From Candidatus Deferrimicrobium sp. (GTDB lineage Archaea; Asgardarchaeota; Lokiarchaeia; Helarchaeales; HEL-GB-A): a DNA stretch of 64,000 nucleotides. Shown in pieces: positions 16,338 through 34,856 of this stretch. The notes beneath the pieces are model-generated. The model saw nothing but the letters and a program-made list of their open reading frames with translations. It did no database searches and was not told the origin of the DNA. A program made the position numbers and the translations under genes. Location: the NCBI GenBank assembly GCA_035531115.1, contig DATKTP010000172.1:18965-82964 (forward strand), written 5' to 3'. Position 1 is the stretch's first letter. Each line of letters opens with the position of its first letter.

Positions 16338-16812
16338 TTATAATTCTATTTCTCCTGCTCTTTTCAAAATTTCATTGATTAGTTCTTTATCGAGATAATA
16401 ACCCGCAGTTATAAATTTGAGAATGTAATCCTTTATAGAATTGATTAAGCCACTTTTTTTAGCTTTAATAAGAATTCCCAGAGTTCCTTGAATTTTTAAA
16501 TTAAGAGATTTAGCTATTTTACGCCCTTTCTTCTCATCAAGTAAAATTGGAGCTTTCATTTCATTAGCTAGGGTAATTGTTTCGGCTTCCCCTTCATCAA
16601 GTAAATTTATTAGCATTTTTAAAATATCGGACTTTTTAACCTCAACAACTTTTATCCAGTTCGTGTTAACTATCTTCTGCCCCTCAAGATTTTTTCAGTA
16701 ACTCAAGTTGAACCGCTTTAGGTATTATTATTTCTCTATAAAGTTCTTTTAAGAGCCAGAGAAGAGATATCTCATGAAGGACTATAAGGGGGCCTGTATT
16801 CGAAACTTTCAA
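16338..16812 (-). pseudogene. PIN-like DUF3368/COG2405 toxin, frameshifted
   Basis: N-part (frame A) ...LWLLKELYREIIIPKAVQLELLKKS* and C-part (frame B) WIKVVEVKKSDILKMLINLLDEGEAE...GTLGILIKAKKSGLI; frames switch at the T6 run 16690-16695; TTG start overlaps antitoxin stop. Confidence 0.55.
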
Positions 16813-17039
16813 GTCAAATCCTCGAGTTCTTCTCTTAAATCCTCCACATTAATATTGGTAAAAGAAATCTTCATTTTCCCAAGTTCATGAAGGAAATCCC
16901 AAAGTGATATTTCTGCTAGATCCGCCGCTTGTTTTAAGGTGATTTCTCCCTCATTAAATAAATTTGCAGCGACATGAATCTTGACTTTTTTTTCAGAAAT
17001 CTCAGCTGGAACTTTTATAATGATTGTTTTAGTAGTCAT
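16809..17039 (-). CDS. UPF0175-family antitoxin (partner of DUF3368)
   Basis: 76 aa, motif AADLAEISLWDFLHELGK. Confidence 0.55.
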   Translation of the reverse strand: MTTKTIIIKVPAEISEKKVKIHVAANLFNEGEITLKQAADLAEISLWDFLHELGKMKISFTNINVEDLREELEDLT

Positions 17040-17164: not shown

Positions 17165-17713
17165 TTAGAATTTACCTGGTGGAAATTCATTAAAGGATTC
17201 AAAAAACAGCCTTTTGAGGTCATTAAAAATAAGCTCTCTATTTTGAATTGTTAAATTAAATACTCTCACATCATTCCGTTGATATACTTTAGTAACAAAA
17301 GGATGCGTGATTTGCCCAATAGTCCCTAGTACTTTTTGGTAGTTCAAGGCATCCCAGACCGTCTCTTGAAATTCTTCAGAAACTAACTCCATTTTTCCAA
17401 TTTCATCAATTATAATTAACGCTACGTTTTTTTCAATAGATCTTTTTATCCCTAATACTCCAATCCGGTTAAGATCCTCTAACTTTACTCGATAACTTGC
17501 GACTTTTGGACCTTCTTTTTGATTGATATGCGCCAAGATACCTCGTTCGCCAGTCATCATGTCTACAATTTCAAAACCCAATCGACTTCGCTCTCTTATT
17601 TCAGGAGTATAGATACCTCCTAAAGTTTTTCCTTTTCGTTTAAATAGATCAACCAATTTTTGGATTAGGGTGCTTTTTCCGCTCCGGGGCTTCCCTCGTA
17701 TTAGAATATTAAT
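17165..17713 (-). CDS. THEP1-type nucleoside triphosphatase; probable ATT start
   Basis: IGVLGIKRSIE...IIIDEIGKMEL matches THEP1; Walker A (KPRSGKSTLIQK) lies in-frame upstream of the first canonical start (TTG 17656); frame opens at ATT 17713 preceded by AGGAGG. Confidence 0.65.
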   Translation of the reverse strand: MNILIRGKPRSGKSTLIQKLVDLFKRKGKTLGGIYTPEIRERSRLGFEIVDMMTGERGILAHINQKEGPKVASYRVKLEDLNRIGVLGIKRSIEKNVALIIIDEIGKMELVSEEFQETVWDALNYQKVLGTIGQITHPFVTKVYQRNDVRVFNLTIQNRELIFNDLKRLFFESFNEFPPGKF

Positions 17714-17724
17714 TAAGGATCCTC

Positions 17725-17946
17725 CTAACCATATTTCATCTTTAAAACGACATTACAGGTCGGACACTTTTTATTCAAATCAACAGTATACACGGAAAAC
17801 GTTCGCTGGCAGGTTTGACAGATTAGGATCGTTTGGAGAAGTGCCCCACAAGCTGGACATTCTTCGGTCTTTATTTGATCTGATAAAAAAAATTTTTTGC
17901 ATTGATCACAATACTTTTCAAATTGCGGTAATTTAAACGAAGCCAT
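17725..17946 (-). CDS. small zinc-ribbon protein (four CxxC pairs)
   Basis: CDQC...CPAC...CQTC...CPTC. Confidence 0.5.
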   Translation of the reverse strand: MASFKLPQFEKYCDQCKKFFLSDQIKTEECPACGALLQTILICQTCQRTFSVYTVDLNKKCPTCNVVLKMKYG

Positions 17947-23243: not shown

Positions 23244-23729
23244 TAAAATATCCTCTAATCTCCTACTTTCTATCCCTAATTTTATTACCTTTTGATATAT
23301 TTATTTCTCTAAATAGGATGAAAAGAATACTCTCTTCCATTAAATTATAAATAATAAATTTTTAATGAAAAAAATACTCATTAGATTGTTGCTCCAAATT
23401 TATAGAAGATCCTCTCTGAACAATCAAAAAATAAACATAAAGATGTTTAAGATCCTTATATAGTAATAAATGTGAAATATCTTTATATAGAAACGAATGG
23501 TTAACTTAGATCAAACAAAATTTTTTATACTCTATAGAAATCAGTGACCGACAAGATAATTCCTCATAACATCAAAAAACACAAATAAATCATTTTAAAA
23601 ACAACAATTTTTGAAATATGGCTATAGAGTATTGAAGATCGAAAAATAAAAAATAAAAAGAAAAAAAATTAAAAAAAGTCAAATAAAAGTTGCAAATTAG
23701 AAAGGAAAAATAGACATGAAATAAAAAAT

Positions 23730-23736
23730 AAGGTGG
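23730..23736 (+). promoter_or_regulatory. Shine-Dalgarno-like AAGGTGG about 10 nt upstream of thermosome ATG
   Basis: Purine-rich GGTGG precedes ATG at 23746. Confidence 0.35.
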
Positions 23737-23745
23737 AAAAAAAAG

Positions 23746-25416
23746 ATGGCACAATTAAGTGGAACCCCAGTTCTTATTTTAAGAGAAGGAACAGAACGGT
23801 CTCGTGGAAAGGATGCACAACGGAACAATATTTCAGCAGCGAAAATTATTTCAGAGGCAGTGCGAACAACGCTCGGTCCGAGAGGGATGGATAAAATGTT
23901 AGTTGACAGTCTAGGCGATGTAACCATTACGAACGATGGCGCTACCATTTTAAAGGAAATCGATGTCCAGCACCCTGCCGCAAAATTAATGGTCGAAATT
24001 GCGAAGACGCAAGACCAAGAAGTCGGTGATGGTACGACATCTGCAGTTGTGCTCGCCGGCGAACTGCTCAAGAACGCCGAGGAATTACTGGAATCTAAGA
24101 TTCATCCAACAACCATCGCGGCGGGTTTTAAGAAAGCAGCCGCGAAGGCGAGGGACATTCTAACTAGTATGGCCATAGAGGTCGATATCAACAGCAATGA
24201 TATCAATAAGGCTGTGATGACAAGCTTGAATAGCAAGGCAATCCGCGGATTCAAAGAGAAATTCGCCAAAATTGCGGTTAATGCAGTGCATGCCGTGAAA
24301 GAAAAGCGCGCTGGTAAATGGTTCGTCGATCTCGATCAGATCCAGATTCAGAAAAAGCGGGGCAAGAGTCTCGCGGAAACTGAAATGATTGACGGAATCG
24401 TGATTGATAAGGAAATTGTCCATACCGACATGCCCAAGAGTTTAAAGAATGCAAAAGTCGCGTTACTCGATTTGGCATTGGAAATCAAGAAAACCGAGTT
24501 CGATTCTGAAATCAGGATCACGGATCCAACGCAGATTCAAGCATTCCTTGATGAAGAGGCACGAATGGTGAAAGCCTTTGTTGATAAACTCAAAGAGGTC
24601 GGTGCGACGATGGTTTTTTGCCAGAAAGGAATCGATGACGATGCGCAGCATTTCTTAGCTGTAAATGGAATGAGTGCGGCCCGACGAGTCAAGAAATCGG
24701 ATATGGAGAAGCTCCAACGTTCAACCGGGGCAATCATAGTTATGAACATCAAAGATCTCTCACCCCAAGATTTAGGGACCGCTGAACTAATAGAAGAACG
24801 AAAAATTGGCGATGATAAAGTAATATATATTACAGGTGCAAAACAATTGAAATCGGTGAGTATTGTGATTCGTGGAGGCGTAGAACATGTCGTTGATGAA
24901 GCAGAACGAGGAATTCATGATGCACTCTGCGTAGCGAAAGATATCATTCAAGAAAATAAGATTGTAGGTGGCGGTGGAGCTAGCGAAGTTGAAGTTGCAA
25001 AACAACTGCGTGCTTATGCCGCACAAGTTGGCGGACGTGAGCAATTGGCAGTAGAAGCTTTTGCTGATGCTATTGAAATCATACCAAAAACTTTAAGCGA
25101 AAATGCTGGTCTGGATCCAATTGATATCCTCGTCAAACTTCGCGCGAAACACGAATCAGACGGAAAAAATATCGGCATTGACGTTTTTGATGGCGAAGTG
25201 AAAGACATGATCCAAGCAGGCATTACTGAACCTTTAGTGGTGAAGTTACAGGCAGTGAAAACCGCAGCTGAATCAGCGAGCATGATTATTAGAATTGATG
25301 ATGTAATAGCCGCTAGGGCATCCCCAGGTGGACCCCCAGGCGGTGGAATGCCACCAGGTATGGGCGGCATGCCACCAGGTATGGGTGGCATGGGAGGATA
25401 TCCCGGGATGATGTAA
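23746..25416 (+). CDS. thsA: thermosome subunit (group II chaperonin)
   Basis: [18 protein letters not shown], equatorial ATP-binding motifs GDGTTS; C-terminal [10 protein letters not shown] tail. Confidence 0.95.
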
Positions 25417-25423
25417 GGAGGTT

Positions 25424-27082
25424 ATGGAAAAAATGTCACAATTAACAGGAACCCCAGTTCTTATTTTAAGAGAAGGCGCAGAAAGATCGCGCGGGCGAGA
25501 TGCCCAATCGTCGAACATTATGGCAGCGAAAGTAATTGCTGAATCGGTTAGAACATCGCTCGGCCCAAAGGGCATGGATAAAATGCTTGTTGACTCCTTT
25601 GGAGACGTAACTATCACGAACGATGGTGCAACAATCCTCAAGGAAATGGATGTGCAACATCCTGCTGCAAAAATCTTGGTTGAAGTCGCAAAGACCCAAG
25701 ATGACGAAGTGGGAGATGGTACGACAACCGCCGTAATCCTCACAGGCGAACTCTTGAAAAATGCGGAAGAATTGATTAAAGAAAAAATTCATCCTACCAT
25801 TATTGTTGAGGGCTATGGGAAAGCGATGGAAAAAGCCATTGAAATCTTGGATTTACTGGCAAAGGACATTGGCGTTGATAATAGAGATATCCAGAAGAAA
25901 GCAGCTATAACTGCGATGTCAAGCAAAGTAGTCGGTGAATCTTCAACATTTCTTGCAGATATTGCTGTAAAAGCTATTAATACCATTAAAGAACAGAAAG
26001 AAGGCAAGTGGGAAGCCGATTTAGATAACATTAGTATCCAGAAGAAACAAGGTGAGAGTGTAGAAGATTCCTCTCTTATTACAGGACTCATTATCGACAA
26101 AGAAATCGTGCATTCAGGCATGCCAAAAAGCATTGAAAATGCTAAAATAGCTTTACTGGAAACTGCTTTAGAAATCGAAAAGACAGAATTCGATGCAAAG
26201 ATTTCAATTACGCAAGTTGATCAAATGCAAGCATTCCTTGCACAAGAAGAAACAATGCTTCGTAATATGGCCAATAAAATCAAAGAATCTGGCGCAACAG
26301 TTGTCTTATGTCAAAAGGGAATTGATGATCTCGTGCAACACTTCTTATCAAAGGCAGGAATTGCGGCAATCAGGCGGATTAAAAAATCGGATATCGAAAA
26401 ATTGTCGAAAGCTACTGGTGCAAGAATAATCACCAACATCGACAAATTAGCTGCAAGTGATTTAGGTGCGGCTGGTTTAATCGAAGAACGGCGAATTGGG
26501 AATGATTTAATGGTTTTCGTTGAAAAATGCTCCGACCCCAAAGCAATTAGCATCCTCATTCGTGGAGGCACTCAGATGATCGTGGATGAAGCCGATCGGG
26601 CCTTGCATGATGCACTATGCATAGTACGGAATCTAATTAGTGAACCCAAAGCCGTCATTGGTGGAGGCGCACCTGAAATTGAAGTAGCAAAAGGTTTGCG
26701 GGCTTATGCAGAGACGCTATCCGGTCGAGAACAACTAGCGGTTCAAGTATTTGCCAAAGCAGTCGAAAGTATCCCACGAACATTAGCAGAGAATGCAGGT
26801 ATGGATCCAATTGATGCCCTCGTTGAACTTCGCTCGAAGCACGGAGCTGGCCAAACGACCGTTGGAGTCGATGTGATGGCTGGCAAAATTGGCGATTTGA
26901 AAGATAAGGCAATCTGGGAACCAGTAATAGTGAAGAAACAAGCAATTAAATCAGCAGCTGAAGCAGCCCAAATGATTCTACGCATTGATGACGTCATCTC
27001 CTCTTCAAAAGGTGGTGGCGGCGGTCCTCCTGGTGGTCCTGGTGGTCCAGGTGGTATGGGCGGCATGGGCGACGAAGATTAA
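25424..27082 (+). CDS. thsB: thermosome subunit, second paralogue
   Basis: Same motifs as thsA; 7-nt spacer with SD GGAGG; about 60% identical to upstream copy. Confidence 0.95.
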
Positions 27083-27086
27083 ACTC

Positions 27087-27112
27087 CTCTCTTTTTTTCT
27101 TTTTTTTTTTTA
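27087..27112 (+). terminator. oligo-T tract after thsB
   Basis: ctctctttttttcttttttttttttaat immediately after stop. Confidence 0.4.
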
Positions 27113-27177
27113 ATAGTTGAAGATTTGTTCAGAAATAGTGGTTTGAAAAGGGTTAGCGAAGGTGGAATGAACTTCAT

Positions 27178-27900
27178 ATGAAGGAAGAGAAATCCTCTGA
27201 AGTGAAGAAGGAACCCGTAAAAAAGACCGAATCTACTGAATTTGAGGAAGTAGATGTTGGTTTAGAGGATAATATGAATTCAAGTTCACACATTGATAAT
27301 GAAGTTAATAAAACTGAAGTAAAACCTCCAATTCCCGAAGAATGGAAAGGGAAATCGGAGGAAGAAATTGCTCTTCTCTGGGAAATTCAAGATCTGAAGA
27401 AAAAGTTAGAAGATACGAAGAAAGACTGGTTTGATAAATATGCGCGACTCCAAGCAGAGTTTGAGAATTTCCAAAAACGAAACTTAAAAGAGAAGGAAAC
27501 CTTTACTACTTACGCGAATTCACAATTAATATCCAAGTTACTTCCGATATTGGATAGTTCTGAAATTATGTTAAAAAGTATAGAACCGAAACTCGAACCG
27601 AAGGAGTTTCAAGGAATTAAAATGATATTTAAAGAATTGTATGGGGTGTTTGAGAAAGAAGGCTTAACCCCTATCAAAGCGAAGGGAGAGGCTTTTGATC
27701 CCTTCGTTCATGAAATTCTTTGTGTAGAATGTACGGACGAGTGCCCTGATGAAACGATTCTTGAAGAATTTCAGAAGGGCTATAAGCTGAAAGATCGGGT
27801 ACTTCGTCCTTCAAAAGTAAAAATTGCAAAAAAGAAAATCCCTGAAGCGAAAAAAACAAATTCTGAATCAGAAGAAGAAAAAATAGTTGAAGATAATTAA
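27178..27900 (+). CDS. grpE: nucleotide exchange factor GrpE
   Basis: Acidic N-term, coiled-coil, C-terminal GrpE beta-domain pattern (FDPFVHEIL...). Confidence 0.8.
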   Translation: MKEEKSSEVKKEPVKKTESTEFEEVDVGLEDNMNSSSHIDNEVNKTEVKPPIPEEWKGKSEEEIALLWEIQDLKKKLEDTKKDWFDKYARLQAEFENFQKRNLKEKETFTTYANSQLISKLLPILDSSEIMLKSIEPKLEPKEFQGIKMIFKELYGVFEKEGLTPIKAKGEAFDPFVHEILCVECTDECPDETILEEFQKGYKLKDRVLRPSKVKIAKKKIPEAKKTNSESEEEKIVEDN

Positions 27901-27918
27901 TAAGAAAATAGAATAAAT

Positions 27919-29871
27919 TTGAGAGGTTTCAATAAAATGGCAAAAATAATTGGAATAGATTTAGGAACAAGTAATTCTGCAGCAGCAGTAATGATAGGTG
28001 GAAAACCTACTCTAATTCCGAGCGCAGAAGGTGTAAGCATTGCCGGAGGTAAAGCATTTCCTTCAGTAATTGCATTCACTAAGGATGGACAGCGTTTAAT
28101 CGGAGAACCAGCGCGTCGTCAAGCCGTTACTAATCCAGAGCGAACGATTACTAAGATAAAACGGAAAATGGGAACAGACTATAAAGTCAAAATCGATAAT
28201 ACAGACTATACCCCCCAAGATATATCGGCGATGTTACTCCGCAAGATTCGGGAAGATAGTGAAGCTTTCTTGGGTGAGCCTGTTAAACAAGCTGTAATAA
28301 CTACTCCTGCGTACTTCAACGATCGTCAGCGACAAGCGACTAAAGATGCAGGACAAATTGCAGGTTTGGAAGTGCTACGGATCATCAATGAACCAACCGC
28401 GGCTTCTTTAGCATATGGCCTCGATAAAGAAAAAAAGAACATAAAAATCGCGGTCTTGGATCTTGGTGGTGGAACCTTTGATGTGACCATGATGGAAATG
28501 GGTGAGGGTGTCTTCGAAGTCATTTCTACGAGCGGTGACACGCAATTGGGTGGCACTGATATGGATATTTTAATCGTCGATTTCCTTGTTGCTGAATTTC
28601 AACGAACGCAGGGCATTAACTTGAAAAATGACACAATGGCAATAGTGCGCTTAGCCGAAGCTGCTGAAAAAGCAAAAATTGAGCTTTCAACGACAGTAAA
28701 TTCCGAAATTAATCTCCCTTACTTAACTGCCGATTCAACTGGTCCTAAGCATATGACCTATACATTAACTCGAGCAAAACTTGAGGAACTAGTGGAATCA
28801 ATTCTTAATCGGTTAGATGGGCCAATCAAAGATGCGATAAAAGGTGCAAAATGGTCCCAAAATGAGATTGACAAGATTATATTAGTAGGTGGTCCGACCC
28901 GCATGCCATCCGTTCGTGAGCGATTCAAAAGAAATTTTGGAAAAGAACCTGAACGGGGAGTCGATCCAATGGAATGTGTTGCGATGGGTGCAGCAATCCA
29001 AGCTGGAGTTCTTGCAGGGGAAGTCAAAGATATTCTCCTACTTGATGTTACTCCATTGTCCTTGGGTGTAGAAACCTTAGGAAATGTTTTTACCAAATTA
29101 ATTGAACGCAATACCACCATTCCCACGAAAAAAAGTGAAATTTTCTCAACCGCATCAGATAATCAGCCCGCAGTTGAAATTCATGTCCTTCAAGGAGAGC
29201 GCCCACGGGCTTACGATAATATAACTTTAGGAAAATTCCATTTAGTTGGAATTCCTCCCGCACCTCGGGGCATTCCCCAGATTGAAGTATCCTTCGATAT
29301 TGATTCAAACGGGATAGTAAATGTTTCAGCGAAAGATTTAGGAACCGGTCGAGAACAAAAAATTACCATAACCGGAGGTTCCAAACTACCCGATGCGGAA
29401 ATTCAGAAGAAAATTAAAGAAGCAGAGCAGTTTTCAGAAGAGGATCGGAAATTCAAAGAAAAAGTTGAGATAAAAAATCAAGCTGATTCCCTTATCTATA
29501 ATACAGAGAAACTAATTAAAGAACAAGGGGAAAAAGTCGATGCTGTTTTGAAGGAAAATGTGCAAACTGAGATTGAAAAACTTAAGAAAGCTTTAGAATC
29601 AGATGATACCGTACAAATAAAGCAAGGGGTTGAAGATCTTACGCAAGCAATGCATAAGGTCGCGGAAAAGATTTATCAACAGCCCGGTGCTGGTCCATTT
29701 CCCGGTGGTGTCCCTCCTGGCGCAGGCCCCTTTCCCGGAGGAGTTCCTCCCGGTGGATATCCTGGCGAACCTGGTGCCCAAGGTTCTTCCAAACAAGCCC
29801 CTACAGATGAAAACGTTGTGGATGCCGATTATGAGATAGTTGACGAAGATGAGGATGAGAAAAAAGATTAA
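27919..29871 (+). CDS. dnaK: Hsp70 chaperone DnaK
   Basis: [29 protein letters not shown]; C-terminal [12 protein letters not shown] x2. Confidence 0.95.
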
Positions 29872-29907
29872 TTTTCCCGCTTCCTTTTTTTAGATGTGGT
29901 CTAACTA

Positions 29908-31020
29908 ATGTCAGAAGAAAAAAAACGCGACATCTATGAGATATTAGGCGTTTCGAAAAATGCAACGAAGGACGAAATCAAGAAGGCATTCCGTCAGCTT
30001 GCTTTAAAATATCACCCTGATAAGAACCCTGATAATCGAAAATGGGCTGAAGAAAAATTTAAAGAGGTCGCTGAAGCCTATGAAATACTTAATGATAACG
30101 AAAAACGACAATTATATGATCGATTTGGCTGGGATGGCGTAAGGCGTAGCGGATTCTCTGGCTTTAGCAATGTCGATATCAGTGATATTTTTAGCCATTT
30201 CGCTGATTTCTTAGGTGGTAGTGGTGGTGGATTCGGTGATATTTTTGGTGACCTTTTCGGATTCGGAGGTCATAGAGGTCGACAGCATGTAACACGGGGC
30301 GATGACATCCGCTATGATCTAGAACTCACCTTAGAGGACGCCTTTAAAGGAAAGAAAATCGAAATCGAAATACCAAAACATATATCATGTGAAGTATGTC
30401 GTGGGTCTGGCGCAGAATCCCCTTCTGATATAAGTAACTGCTCCGCTTGCGGTGGATCAGGGCAAAGTAAACAAATTCGCTCCACTCCTTTTGGTCAAAT
30501 GATCAATGTTACTACGTGTGGTAGGTGTCGCGGAAATGGAAAAATAATTACCAAAAAGTGTAAGGAGTGCAATGGCACTGGACGGATTCGAAAAGTGCGA
30601 AAAATTTCACTTGACCTACCACCGGGCATCGATACAGGAAACCGCATGCGTGTTTCAGGAGAAGGTGAAGCCGGTCAGCAAAATGCCCCCTCAGGCGATC
30701 TCTATATAATTATCCACATCAAACCCCATCCAATTTTTGAACGACACGAATCCCATCTCGTTTGTGAGCGCAAGATCACCTTTAGTCAAGCCGCGCTAGG
30801 AGATAAATTAGAAATTAATACGTTAGATAGTGCCACGAAATTAAGTATCCCTCCCGGAACCAAGAGTGGTACTATATTTCGCTTAAGAGGACAGGGAATG
30901 CCTGAATTCCGAGGGTACGGCCGGGGCGATTTATTATGTAAAGTAGATATTGAGGTTCCTAAAAGATTATCGAAAGAGCAAAAACAAATGGTTGAAAAAT
31001 TAAAAGAGCTTGGATTGTAA
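29908..31020 (+). CDS. dnaJ: Hsp40 co-chaperone DnaJ
   Basis: J-domain YHPDKN, G/F-rich linker, four CxxCxGxG zinc repeats. Confidence 0.9.
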
Positions 31021-33412: not shown

Positions 33413-34696
33413 CTATCCTTTATTTTTTTCTGGATTTTTCTTTTTATCCTTCTTGTATTTCTTCCATTTTTTCTTAAACTTCTTTGATTTCTTTTCCTCT
33501 GGTTGTCTTTTCTCCATTAGTTCGGGTCTCTCTTTTTTAGACTTTTTTGGAGGCGTAGGATATTTCTTTTTAATGTCATTAATACGACGATTTAAATCTA
33601 ATAGTATATTATCTCCCATATATTCCCCTGAAAAATAATCTACGCGCGCTGCAATCGAAAGTTTCCCTGCTAATGCACGTGCAATCTTACCTTTGAGCCA
33701 AAAAGATGCGCCATGAATTTCCTCCCATTGAAAAATAATTCCATGTTTTGGAGGTCTCGCACCTGTTCGGAGTGATCTGAAAAGTGCCTTTTCTGCCCCT
33801 AACACCTGAACAGTCGAAGCTGGCATCTTCGCTAAATTTTTCATACCGCCTGCTATACTAATCAGACGCGCGCCTAATAGTGACCCCACAATCGCTCGGA
33901 GATTTGGTGCTACTATTTGCATTGCCTCATCTACATAAGTTGCAAGCTCATCTCGAACACCAAATAAATCATCTGTTACTAATGAGAATTGTCGAAGTGG
34001 AGTAAGTTCAAAATCAGTAATGGATGCACCCATCGACTTTCTTGCCATATCCTCAACTTTTATGGCTTTGTCATGTGCAAATCCAATAACTTTCTCGAGG
34101 TTTTCAGCTTGAAGTTGCGAACGAGATCCAAGTCTTCCAACGATTTTAATAAAAGAAGTGTGGCTCGGAAGACTTTTATCAATTTCAGGAAAGTGTAACC
34201 CGTACCATTCTCGAATTCGCGACGCAAATATATTTAATGTTTTATCACAATCATCAACCGCATTAATTGCTTGCGCAATAAACTGATCCTTTTGTTCCGA
34301 AATGCTTTTAATTTTCTTACGTGTCAAAAGGATATTTATTCGTTGAATATATTGAAATATTTCCTCTTCGGATTTCCAGATATTGAATTCTCGAATAAAG
34401 GAGAGTAATTTCGATCGTAGAACTCTTCCGGCAATGGAAGGCGATTCAATAATGACGGGCTTATCTTTAAGATTTCGGGCTAAATTAACATCTTCTACAA
34501 CGATCTCATCAGCACCTTTTTGTATTACTTCATCAATTATTTCTTCTAATTCTGGAATTACCTTTCCCTTTTGTAACTCTAAAAATTTTTCTACTATGTC
34601 GTCAATTTTTTGTTCAAATAACTTCTTTGCCAGAATTTTATTATCCTGATCTAACCCAAAGATTCCGAATGGCGTTTCAACAATGTATATTCGAAT
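33413..34696 (-). CDS. nop5: C/D box snoRNP protein Nop5 (Nop56/58 homologue) with KKE-type C-terminal tail; probable ATT start
   Basis: NOP5NT (RIYIVETPFGIFGLD...) is in-frame upstream of the first canonical start (TTG 34327); Nop domain GLHFPE...; lysine-rich tail; in-frame TGA at 34706-34708 bounds the ORF. Confidence 0.75.
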   Translation of the reverse strand: MRIYIVETPFGIFGLDQDNKILAKKLFEQKIDDIVEKFLELQKGKVIPELEEIIDEVIQKGADEIVVEDVNLARNLKDKPVIIESPSIAGRVLRSKLLSFIREFNIWKSEEEIFQYIQRINILLTRKKIKSISEQKDQFIAQAINAVDDCDKTLNIFASRIREWYGLHFPEIDKSLPSHTSFIKIVGRLGSRSQLQAENLEKVIGFAHDKAIKVEDMARKSMGASITDFELTPLRQFSLVTDDLFGVRDELATYVDEAMQIVAPNLRAIVGSLLGARLISIAGGMKNLAKMPASTVQVLGAEKALFRSLRTGARPPKHGIIFQWEEIHGASFWLKGKIARALAGKLSIAARVDYFSGEYMGDNILLDLNRRINDIKKKYPTPPKKSKKERPELMEKRQPEEKKSKKFKKKWKKYKKDKKKNPEKNKG

Positions 34697-34856
34697 GTAA
34701 ATCCCTCATTTTTTATTGATTTTATTTCATTCTTATAATGTGGTTCTACAAATCATTCAAAGTAAAGAAAATCTTAGCTTAAAATAAAGTTTTTCTTGGA
34801 TATTTAAAATAATTTATAACTTATTATGTGATTAGTTTTTTGGAGGAAAAAATCCA

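Follow-up and report, generated by a model that had tools for sequence, protein, structure and literature searches.

Rare AUU initiation codons are already known from bacteria, and one has been suspected in an Asgard archaeon. In Escherichia coli, the only confirmed AUU starts are those of infC and pcnB (bioRxiv 10.1101/063800), and in Enterococcus faecalis, the ATT start codon of ebpA attenuates expression (PMC4447247). Among archaea, ribosome profiling (Ribo-seq) of Haloferax volcanii yielded putative alternative starts of which about 30% are near-cognate, but these were set aside (PMC7261190). A 2026 paper on Asgard tubulins infers a ‘rare ATT start codon’ for AtubA in a metagenome-assembled genome (MAG) of the Kariarchaeaceae (Heimdallarchaeia) (PMC13394414); in Asgard archaea, such starts are not described as recurrent. 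Here we examine the gene of a THEP1-type NTPase in a 64,000-nucleotide stretch of the contig DATKTP010000172.1 from a Helarchaeales archaeon (hereafter, the window), which probably begins at AUU, together with Nop5, a second candidate encoded in the same genome.

The coding sequence of THEP1 (NTPase_1), counted from the ATT, spans positions 17165-17713 of the minus strand, on which all features discussed below are located unless stated otherwise, and consists of 182 codons and a TAA stop. The frame is bounded by the TAA at 17755-17753 and the TAA at 17167-17165, is open from position 17752, and its translation reads CRFKDEIWLGGSL-I-NILIRGKPRSGKSTLIQK-L(TTG 17656-17654)VDLF... An earlier examination of the same DNA (hereafter, the sequence-only reading) held that this frame continues upstream without interruption and encodes the THEP1 N-terminus, that the TTG at 17656 is its sole canonical start and lies 3' of the P-loop, and that AGGAGG precedes the ATT by 7 nt. 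Direct reading of the DNA bears out all of this. There are no in-frame ATG, GTG or TTG codons between 17752 and 17657, and the TTG at 17656 is the first canonical start; the Walker A motif, or P-loop, GKPRSGKS (17672-17695), read directly, lies 5' of that TTG. The strong Shine-Dalgarno (SD) sequence AGGAGG (17721-17726) overlaps the TAG stop codon of the preceding gene, which encodes a Zn-ribbon protein (TAGGAGG), and is separated by the 7-nt spacer ATCCTTA (17714-17720) from the ATT at 17711-17713, the proposed AUU initiation codon, which is homologous to the ATG or TTG of the orthologues. The program that lists open reading frames (ORFs) reports a 163-aa product beginning at TTG 17656 because this is the sole in-frame ATG, GTG or TTG.

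The protein read from the ATT matches the Pfam family NTPase_1 (PF03266) over its full length, with residues 2-165 aligned to positions 1-166 of the 168-position profile (E 1.1e-43) and a score of 149.5 bits against a cut-off of 23.9. In the PDB, it matches the human cancer-related NTPase (2I3B, 9.4e-18) and Aquifex aeolicus THEP1 (1YE8, 1.5e-14); residue 2 of the window protein is aligned to residue 2 of the Aquifex protein, the Met1 of which falls on the ATT. The AlphaFold2 model, built with 33 homologues, shows a confident P-loop fold (mean pLDDT 93.2, pTM 0.87) in which strand β1 (residues 2-7) is followed by the P-loop and then by a helix (residues 13-26). According to this model, translation from the TTG (Leu20) would leave out β1, the P-loop and one half of α1; both the N-terminal strand and the P-loop are structurally required. 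The segment from β1 to Walker A, NILIRG-GKPRSGKS, is included only if translation starts at or 5' of the ATT at 17713. The Walker B Asp-Glu pair (17402-17407, within LIIIDEIGKME), D103 and E104, is invariant in the 33-sequence alignment A2. Among 120 homologues, 108 carry Walker A near the N-terminus, and the distance from Met to the first Walker A glycine has its mode at 6 residues (27 of the 108 matches), the same value that the ATT gives. By all appearances, then, the gene encodes an intact, functional P-loop NTPase of the THEP1 type, with the activity predicted. It resembles the described THEP1/NTPCR proteins in its full-length match, in the presence of both Walker A and Walker B, and in the single Met and β1 immediately 5' of the P-loop; the initiation codon alone differs.

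The parallel with AtubA is close. In both Asgard cases, the deposited protein is too short and lacks its first β-strand, an upstream ATT restores that strand, a ribosome-binding site is located at a plausible distance, and the start is deduced from sequence and AlphaFold models only. AtubA is a different gene from another Asgard class, and no orthologue series accompanies it in that report. For THEP1, the ATT can be tracked over diverged orthologues, the strength of selection can be estimated, and another gene of this genome has the same layout.

The closest homologues of the window THEP1 belong to Promethearchaeota, Helarchaeota and Loki-type Asgard MAGs. Scans of metagenome and genome contigs with the THEP1 alignment gave, among the matches listed, almost exclusively sequences with 35-48% identity, the closest being L005 (62%) and L085 (55%), and the DNA of close orthologues was retrieved protein by protein. 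Two loci from two other metagenomes, L001 (protein P0002, 90% amino acid identity) and L002 (P0003, 81%), both show TAGGAGG, a 7-nt spacer and ATT AAT ATT. In both of them, the TTG of the window is replaced with TTA and is therefore not conserved as a start. Elsewhere, the homologous codon is canonical: ATG in L173/L174 (P0016; TAGGAGGAGTGGA-ATG-AAT ATT TTG), L171 (P0018; TAGTTAGGAGGGAGAGA-ATG-AAT ATT), L167 (P0025; ATG-AAT ATT) and L168, and TTG in L172 (P0004; GAAGGATGACTT-TTG-AAT ATA). This comparison had been put forward with the sequence-only reading as a check on it, and its outcome, with ATT kept in the two near relatives and ATG or TTG at the same codon in the others, agrees with that reading. 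The SD occupies an equal distance from the start throughout, as TAGGAGG in L001, L002 and L173 and as TTAGGAGG in L171. Because orthologues with that SD have ATG at this position, the ATT of the window is, as judged from the alignment, a single G-to-T change of the family start codon behind the family SD.

A sequencing or assembly error that turned ATG into ATT has nothing in its favor except for the rarity of ATT starts, and we regard it as exceedingly improbable. The window DNA is also present, and identical, in a 110.7-kb ENA MEGAHIT contig and in an independent Logan assembly of SRR8554503. Furthermore, the ATT recurs in L001 and L002, which are clearly diverged and come from other metagenomes, and the ATT of Nop5 is repeated in four metagenomic contigs and one MAG.

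Among the three ATT-bearing genes (window, L001 and L002), dN/dS is 0.10-0.24 at dS of 0.42-0.64, and the operon neighbours show comparable constraint (DUF72, 0.19; Zn-ribbon, 0.08). The 19 codons from the ATT to the TTG contain no amino acid change. The spacer varies at 5 of its 7 positions, and read in the THEP1 frame, these changes are non-synonymous (S/T/I, L/L/F); in the next 57 nt, there are 4 variable positions, all silent. Because the spacer varies and the following 57 nt are nearly fixed, constraint begins exactly at the ATT. This step at the ATT, together with the dN/dS pattern, argues that THEP1 has been maintained by selection since the loss of the ATG and that the P-loop segment is translated. 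As a separate observation, the Zn-ribbon genes of L001 and L002 have dS of 0 and their adjoining THEP1 genes dS of 0.64, which would fit a recombination breakpoint located at the SD and spacer or close by.

These measurements bear directly on the possibility that THEP1 is a start-less or decaying pseudogene, dispensable in this clade and hence subject to recurrent start lesions. Three different start defects do occur among close relatives, namely, the ATT itself (window, L001 and L002), an ATG in the wrong frame (L165) and a GTG followed by a 7-nt insertion (L169, L170 and L005). Of the 12 homologues whose called sequences lack Walker A, 10 fall among the 37 closest. Such decay is nevertheless very unlikely, given that dN/dS of 0.10-0.24 over dS of 0.4-0.6 accumulated after the appearance of the ATT matches the values for the functional neighbours, that three independent sequences contain neither internal stops nor frameshifts, that the P-loop segment is free of amino acid changes, and that the ‘truncated’ L167 and L168 merely had an overlooked ATG. 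The latter two loci were considered as further non-canonical starts and rejected, since each has a normal in-frame ATG missed by the gene caller; their database proteins (P0025 and P0030; 148-149 aa without the P-loop) are gene-caller errors, and the DNA encodes the full N-terminus.

The other relatives are of different kinds. The gene of L165/L166 (1423-1500; P0024) lacks a canonical start in frame ahead of the P-loop, an ATG lies one base out of frame (AGGAATGAAAATATCC vs ATGAAAAAC in L168), and an in-frame AGGTGA-N6-ATT is present, so that L165 is a possible third case of a THEP1 gene with an ATT start. The P0032 loci from three metagenomes (L169, L170 and L005) share GAGGAGTGAAAAACATTTAATATCTTAATTCGTGGA, in which an apparent 7-nt insertion relative to GTG AAA AAC ATT TTA ATT CGT GGA puts the GTG in a different frame from the P-loop; at these loci, no near-cognate start is found at an SD-compatible spacing. 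In one more THEP1 relative, P0008 (199 aa), some 30 residues are duplicated in tandem within the protein (KSTLIQKLVELLRQ.GKTIGGISTPELREG twice), and the beginning of the P-loop is missing; this duplication could be an assembly artefact or real.

Translation might also begin elsewhere in the frame, that is, at the second ATT (17707-17705) or the ATA (17701-17699), either of which would make the N-terminus slightly shorter, or at the TTG at 17656 to give a P-loop-less protein of 163 aa. L001 and L002 likewise retain the second ATT and the ATA, and the TTG was picked by the gene callers of two pipelines (P0001). The SD is, however, located 13 and 19 nt from the second ATT and the ATA, respectively, vs 7 nt from the first ATT, with which the starts of the orthologues exactly coincide. 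The TTG (17654-17656) lacks an SD (the sequence upstream is AGCACCCTAATCCAAAAA), is TTA in the relatives, and as a start would delete β1 and the P-loop; the lack of any amino acid change between the ATT and the TTG argues against the loss of that segment. We judge the TTG not to be the real start, and initiation at any of these three codons to be unlikely.

A route into the THEP1 frame that needs no start codon of its own would be a -1 frameshift on the Zn-ribbon gene. Ribosomes would slip at T_TTA_AAG (17740-17746) and produce a fusion of about 260 aa that comprises the Zn-ribbon, the linker FKDEIWLGGSL and THEP1. The sequence-only reading did not mention this heptamer, which fits the canonical X_XXY_YYZ pattern in the 0 frame of the Zn-ribbon gene (GTC GTT TTA AAG ATG), in the manner of the dnaX and IS911-type sites (X_XXA_AAG), where the heptamer likewise belongs to the 0 frame of the first ORF and the second ORF is read in the -1 frame. 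The -1 frame (TTT AAA GAT GAA ATA TGG TTA GGA GGA TCC TTA ATT) is exactly the frame of THEP1 that is open from 17752. The heptamer is also unchanged in L001 and L002, and in L165, where the Zn-ribbon gene has no THEP1 next to it, the site is A_TTA_AAG, which is not slippery.

Unlike the dnaX and IS911-type sites, however, the heptamer of the window is accompanied by neither a hairpin or pseudoknot, nor an SD-like element on its 5' side, nor fusion homologues. The 97 nt from the heptamer onward have a minimum free energy of -13.4 kcal/mol compared with -17.5 for shuffled sequences (z +1.33), and the consensus fold contains no supported helix and no covariation. Thus, the THEP1 start region is less structured than its shuffles, which fits the expectation for an initiation site. 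No fused homologue is found among the best 120 matches, the longest of which has 224 aa. L171 has T_TTA_AAA in an equal frame relation and yet possesses a normal SD-ATG start, so that the heptamer is explained by a conserved ...LK[ML]KY C-terminus encoded in AT-rich codons. In L173, the corresponding sequence is C_TTA_AAA, the frame relation is opposite and stops intervene between the Zn-ribbon and THEP1, and in L165, L167 and L169, the two genes are not adjacent. The overlap region differs by a single substitution, which in the Zn-ribbon frame replaces M with L, a conservative change, and in the -1 frame replaces D with V, a radical one. A -1 slip would also leave Nop5 unexplained, where there is no upstream gene. 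Taken at its full strength, the frameshift is physically possible but remains, in our assessment, an improbable account of THEP1 expression.

Nop5 (aNOP56) is an essential protein of the box C/D ribonucleoprotein, and its N-terminal domain binds fibrillarin. In the window, its coding sequence counted from the ATT at 34696-34694 spans 33413-34696, in an ORF that is open for 430 codons (34705-33413) and the first canonical start of which, the TTG at 34327, is codon 127, that is, 123 codons past the ATT. The 127-aa N-terminal domain therefore lies entirely 5' of any canonical start, and position 1 of the profile of the archaeal Nop5 N-terminal domain (PF21572) is aligned to the residue immediately after the ATT. 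The leader reads AATGAGGGAT-TTAC-ATT CGA ATA TAC ATT GTT GAA, with the SD-like GAGGG (34703-34707), located within AATGAGGGAT, 6 nt before an ATT that is followed by R-I-Y-I-V-E; close relatives with canonical starts begin with MRVYIID (P0124) and MIRAFIVE (P0125).

The same arrangement is found in relatives, with conservation across three lineages. L175, L176 and L177, from three metagenomes, have ATGAGGGATTTAA ATT CGT GCA CAA ATC GTC GAA, in which the TAA abuts the ATT, with no further canonical start until 40-45 codons 3' of it; because the TAA directly precedes the ATT, L175 has no upstream in-frame alternative. L176 is on the contig that also carries L173, the THEP1 of which has ATG. The Nop5 start of L178 is ATGAGGGATAGAG ATT AGA GCA TTT ATT. 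In the alignment of the window, L176 and L178 leaders, AATGAGGGAT and the ATT are invariant, and the remainder of the leader has diverged. Truncated Nop5 calls are concentrated in the close clade (13 of 22 proteins vs about 5 of 98 distant ones), and the called protein of the window itself is truncated to 304 aa (P0121). Given that the gene is essential, Nop5 is not dismissible as a pseudogene, and among the indirect evidence it is what most strongly favors reading THEP1 from the ATT.

Within the 10-nt block AATGAGGGAT (34701-34710), an ATG outside the Nop5 frame begins a short overlapping upstream ORF (uORF) of 10 codons in the window, 22 in L175 and 5 in L178. The uORF may be regulatory, or the block may instead mark a leaderless 5' end or simply be SD context. 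A +1 frameshift from this ATG was considered and rejected: no shift site is common to the window, L175 and L178, and the TAA in the target frame of L175, up to the ATT, also excludes it.

To what extent AUU is used beyond these two genes can be gauged within the window. Pfam was run on the 30 window ORFs with at least 7 codons before the first canonical start, each translated from stop to stop, and a domain extends 5' of that start in THEP1 and Nop5 only (2 of about 65 ORFs). A window scan for an SD, a spacer of 5-8 nt and a codon opening a long ORF shows no enrichment of ATT over other codons; it recovers the THEP1 and Nop5 sites only. The SD-N6-ATT on Nop5 indicates that AUU starts in this lineage, whether tolerated or used, are not confined to a single gene, and very probably, as far as comparative sequence can tell, some of its proteins start at AUU. 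A broader proposal, that in the Loki/Hel-like Asgard clade AUU is no isolated lesion but a start codon in regular use and kept by selection, serving a few per cent of genes including Nop5, is tentative, and we hold it to be rather doubtful at present. The SD-N6-ATT of Nop5, together with the invariant AATGAGGGAT, does persist across lineages that are just 65-70% identical.

Several considerations weigh against AUU initiation of THEP1. Archaeal start codons are described as AUG, GUG and UUG (PMC7531240), aIF1 reportedly discriminates against starts other than these (PMC6237735), and in E. coli, AUU yields 1-2% of the output of AUG (bioRxiv 10.1101/063800). The combination AGGAGG-N7-ATT is not enriched in the window (1 occurrence vs 0.76 expected), and GGAGG is a poor predictor of gene starts, with 99 window occurrences that are mostly intragenic. 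The slippery heptamer provides another route into the frame, and the second ATT at 17707-17705 may be the codon actually used. In L001 and L002, an in-frame ATG is present 18 codons upstream, and the ATT is not strictly required there. Finally, the Asgard AUU starts, including that of THEP1, have so far been deduced from sequence and models only, and in this respect, the window case, known from its sequence alone, differs from infC, pcnB and ebpA.

Some of these points can be qualified. AGGAGG as such occurs 29 times in the window vs 22 expected, which is not significant, and in only about a quarter of the long window ORFs is a candidate start preceded by an SD-like pentamer; the motif statistics (AGGAGG-N7-ATT and AGGAGG counts) were not used as evidence. 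The THEP1 motif exceeds chance by its position, because it is located at the start codon of the orthologues and is kept in diverged relatives. The upstream ATG of L001 and L002 was evaluated as the true start and rejected, as it has no SD and would entail a 43-nt overlap with the Zn-ribbon gene; its window counterpart is GTG followed by TAA. On balance, we consider it probable that THEP1 initiates at AUU, the reading that fits all the comparative evidence. Thus, the proposal of AUU initiation made in the sequence-only reading gains support from the position of the start, the conservation of the ATT and the SD, purifying selection, the structural model and the parallel with Nop5.

If so, the start codon would have changed from ATG to ATT in the ancestor of this Asgard (Loki/Hel-like) sub-lineage. 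The SD would dock the small ribosomal subunit, or a ribosome that has just terminated, with the AUU in the P site, where the initiator Met-tRNA would read it with two of the three bases paired and a mismatch at the third position. Ribosomes terminating at the overlapping TAG of the Zn-ribbon gene may aid initiation through coupling. The product would be MNILIRGKPRSGKS..., made at a low output compared with an AUG start, and the TTG at 17656 would be an ordinary internal leucine codon. In the THEP1 gene, as in infC, pcnB and ebpA, a conserved AUU would take the place of AUG downstream of a functional SD and go along with low or regulated expression. Those genes are bacterial, and there IF3 discriminates among start codons, whereas the Asgard host selects them with aIF1, aIF1A and aIF2; moreover, there is no evident autoregulatory logic for an NTPase.

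THEP1 is the last cistron of a tightly packed operon, PolX (20502-18796), DUF72 (18766-17951), Zn-ribbon and THEP1. The Zn-ribbon gene (17725-17946) is an ORF encoding a 73-aa double Zn-ribbon protein with four CxxC motifs and weak zinc-ribbon Pfam matches, and it is kept in L001, L002, L165, L171 and L173; the gap between it and THEP1 is 11 nt if measured to the ATT vs 68 nt to the TTG. A scan for sigma-70 promoters and terminators gave nothing, with models that are not relevant to an archaeon. On the other side of THEP1, a DUF3368/PIN-like toxin gene (16338-16812) is split in two frames beside a UPF0175 antitoxin gene (16809-17039). The 42-aa N-terminal part occupies 16684-16812 and overlaps by 11 nt with the frame of the C-terminal part, which is open from 16694 to 16338; the gene looks like a frameshifted toxin. 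On the plus strand, a chaperone cluster (23725-31020) includes two thermosome (Cpn60/TCP-1) genes and GrpE, identified by Pfam; the large ORFs at 27904-29871 and 29905-31020, 3' of the GrpE and thermosome genes, we take, as a guess only, to be DnaK and DnaJ. All genes of this cluster have ordinary ATG or TTG starts.

Standard gene callers truncate such genes, leaving THEP1 without the P-loop (P0001) and Nop5 without its N-terminal domain (P0121 and, altogether, 13 of the 22 close relatives), and therefore the Asgard proteomes used in studies of eukaryogenesis contain systematic N-terminal errors. Archaeal and eukaryotic initiation factors are thought to impose stringent start-codon choice. If the AUU starts described here are genuine, these conserved Asgard sites would constitute a natural system for studying how near-cognate codons are handled by factors of the aIF1/aIF2 type and would also allow one to ask whether weak starts set protein levels. 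The Nop5 companion and the clade-wide truncated calls make systematic use of AUU in Asgard archaea a testable proposition. Should it prove true, start-codon stringency would be relaxed or deliberately regulated in the archaea closest to eukaryotes, one option being a circuit dependent on the level of aIF1, similar to infC/IF3 in bacteria or to the autoregulation of eIF1 through poor start context.

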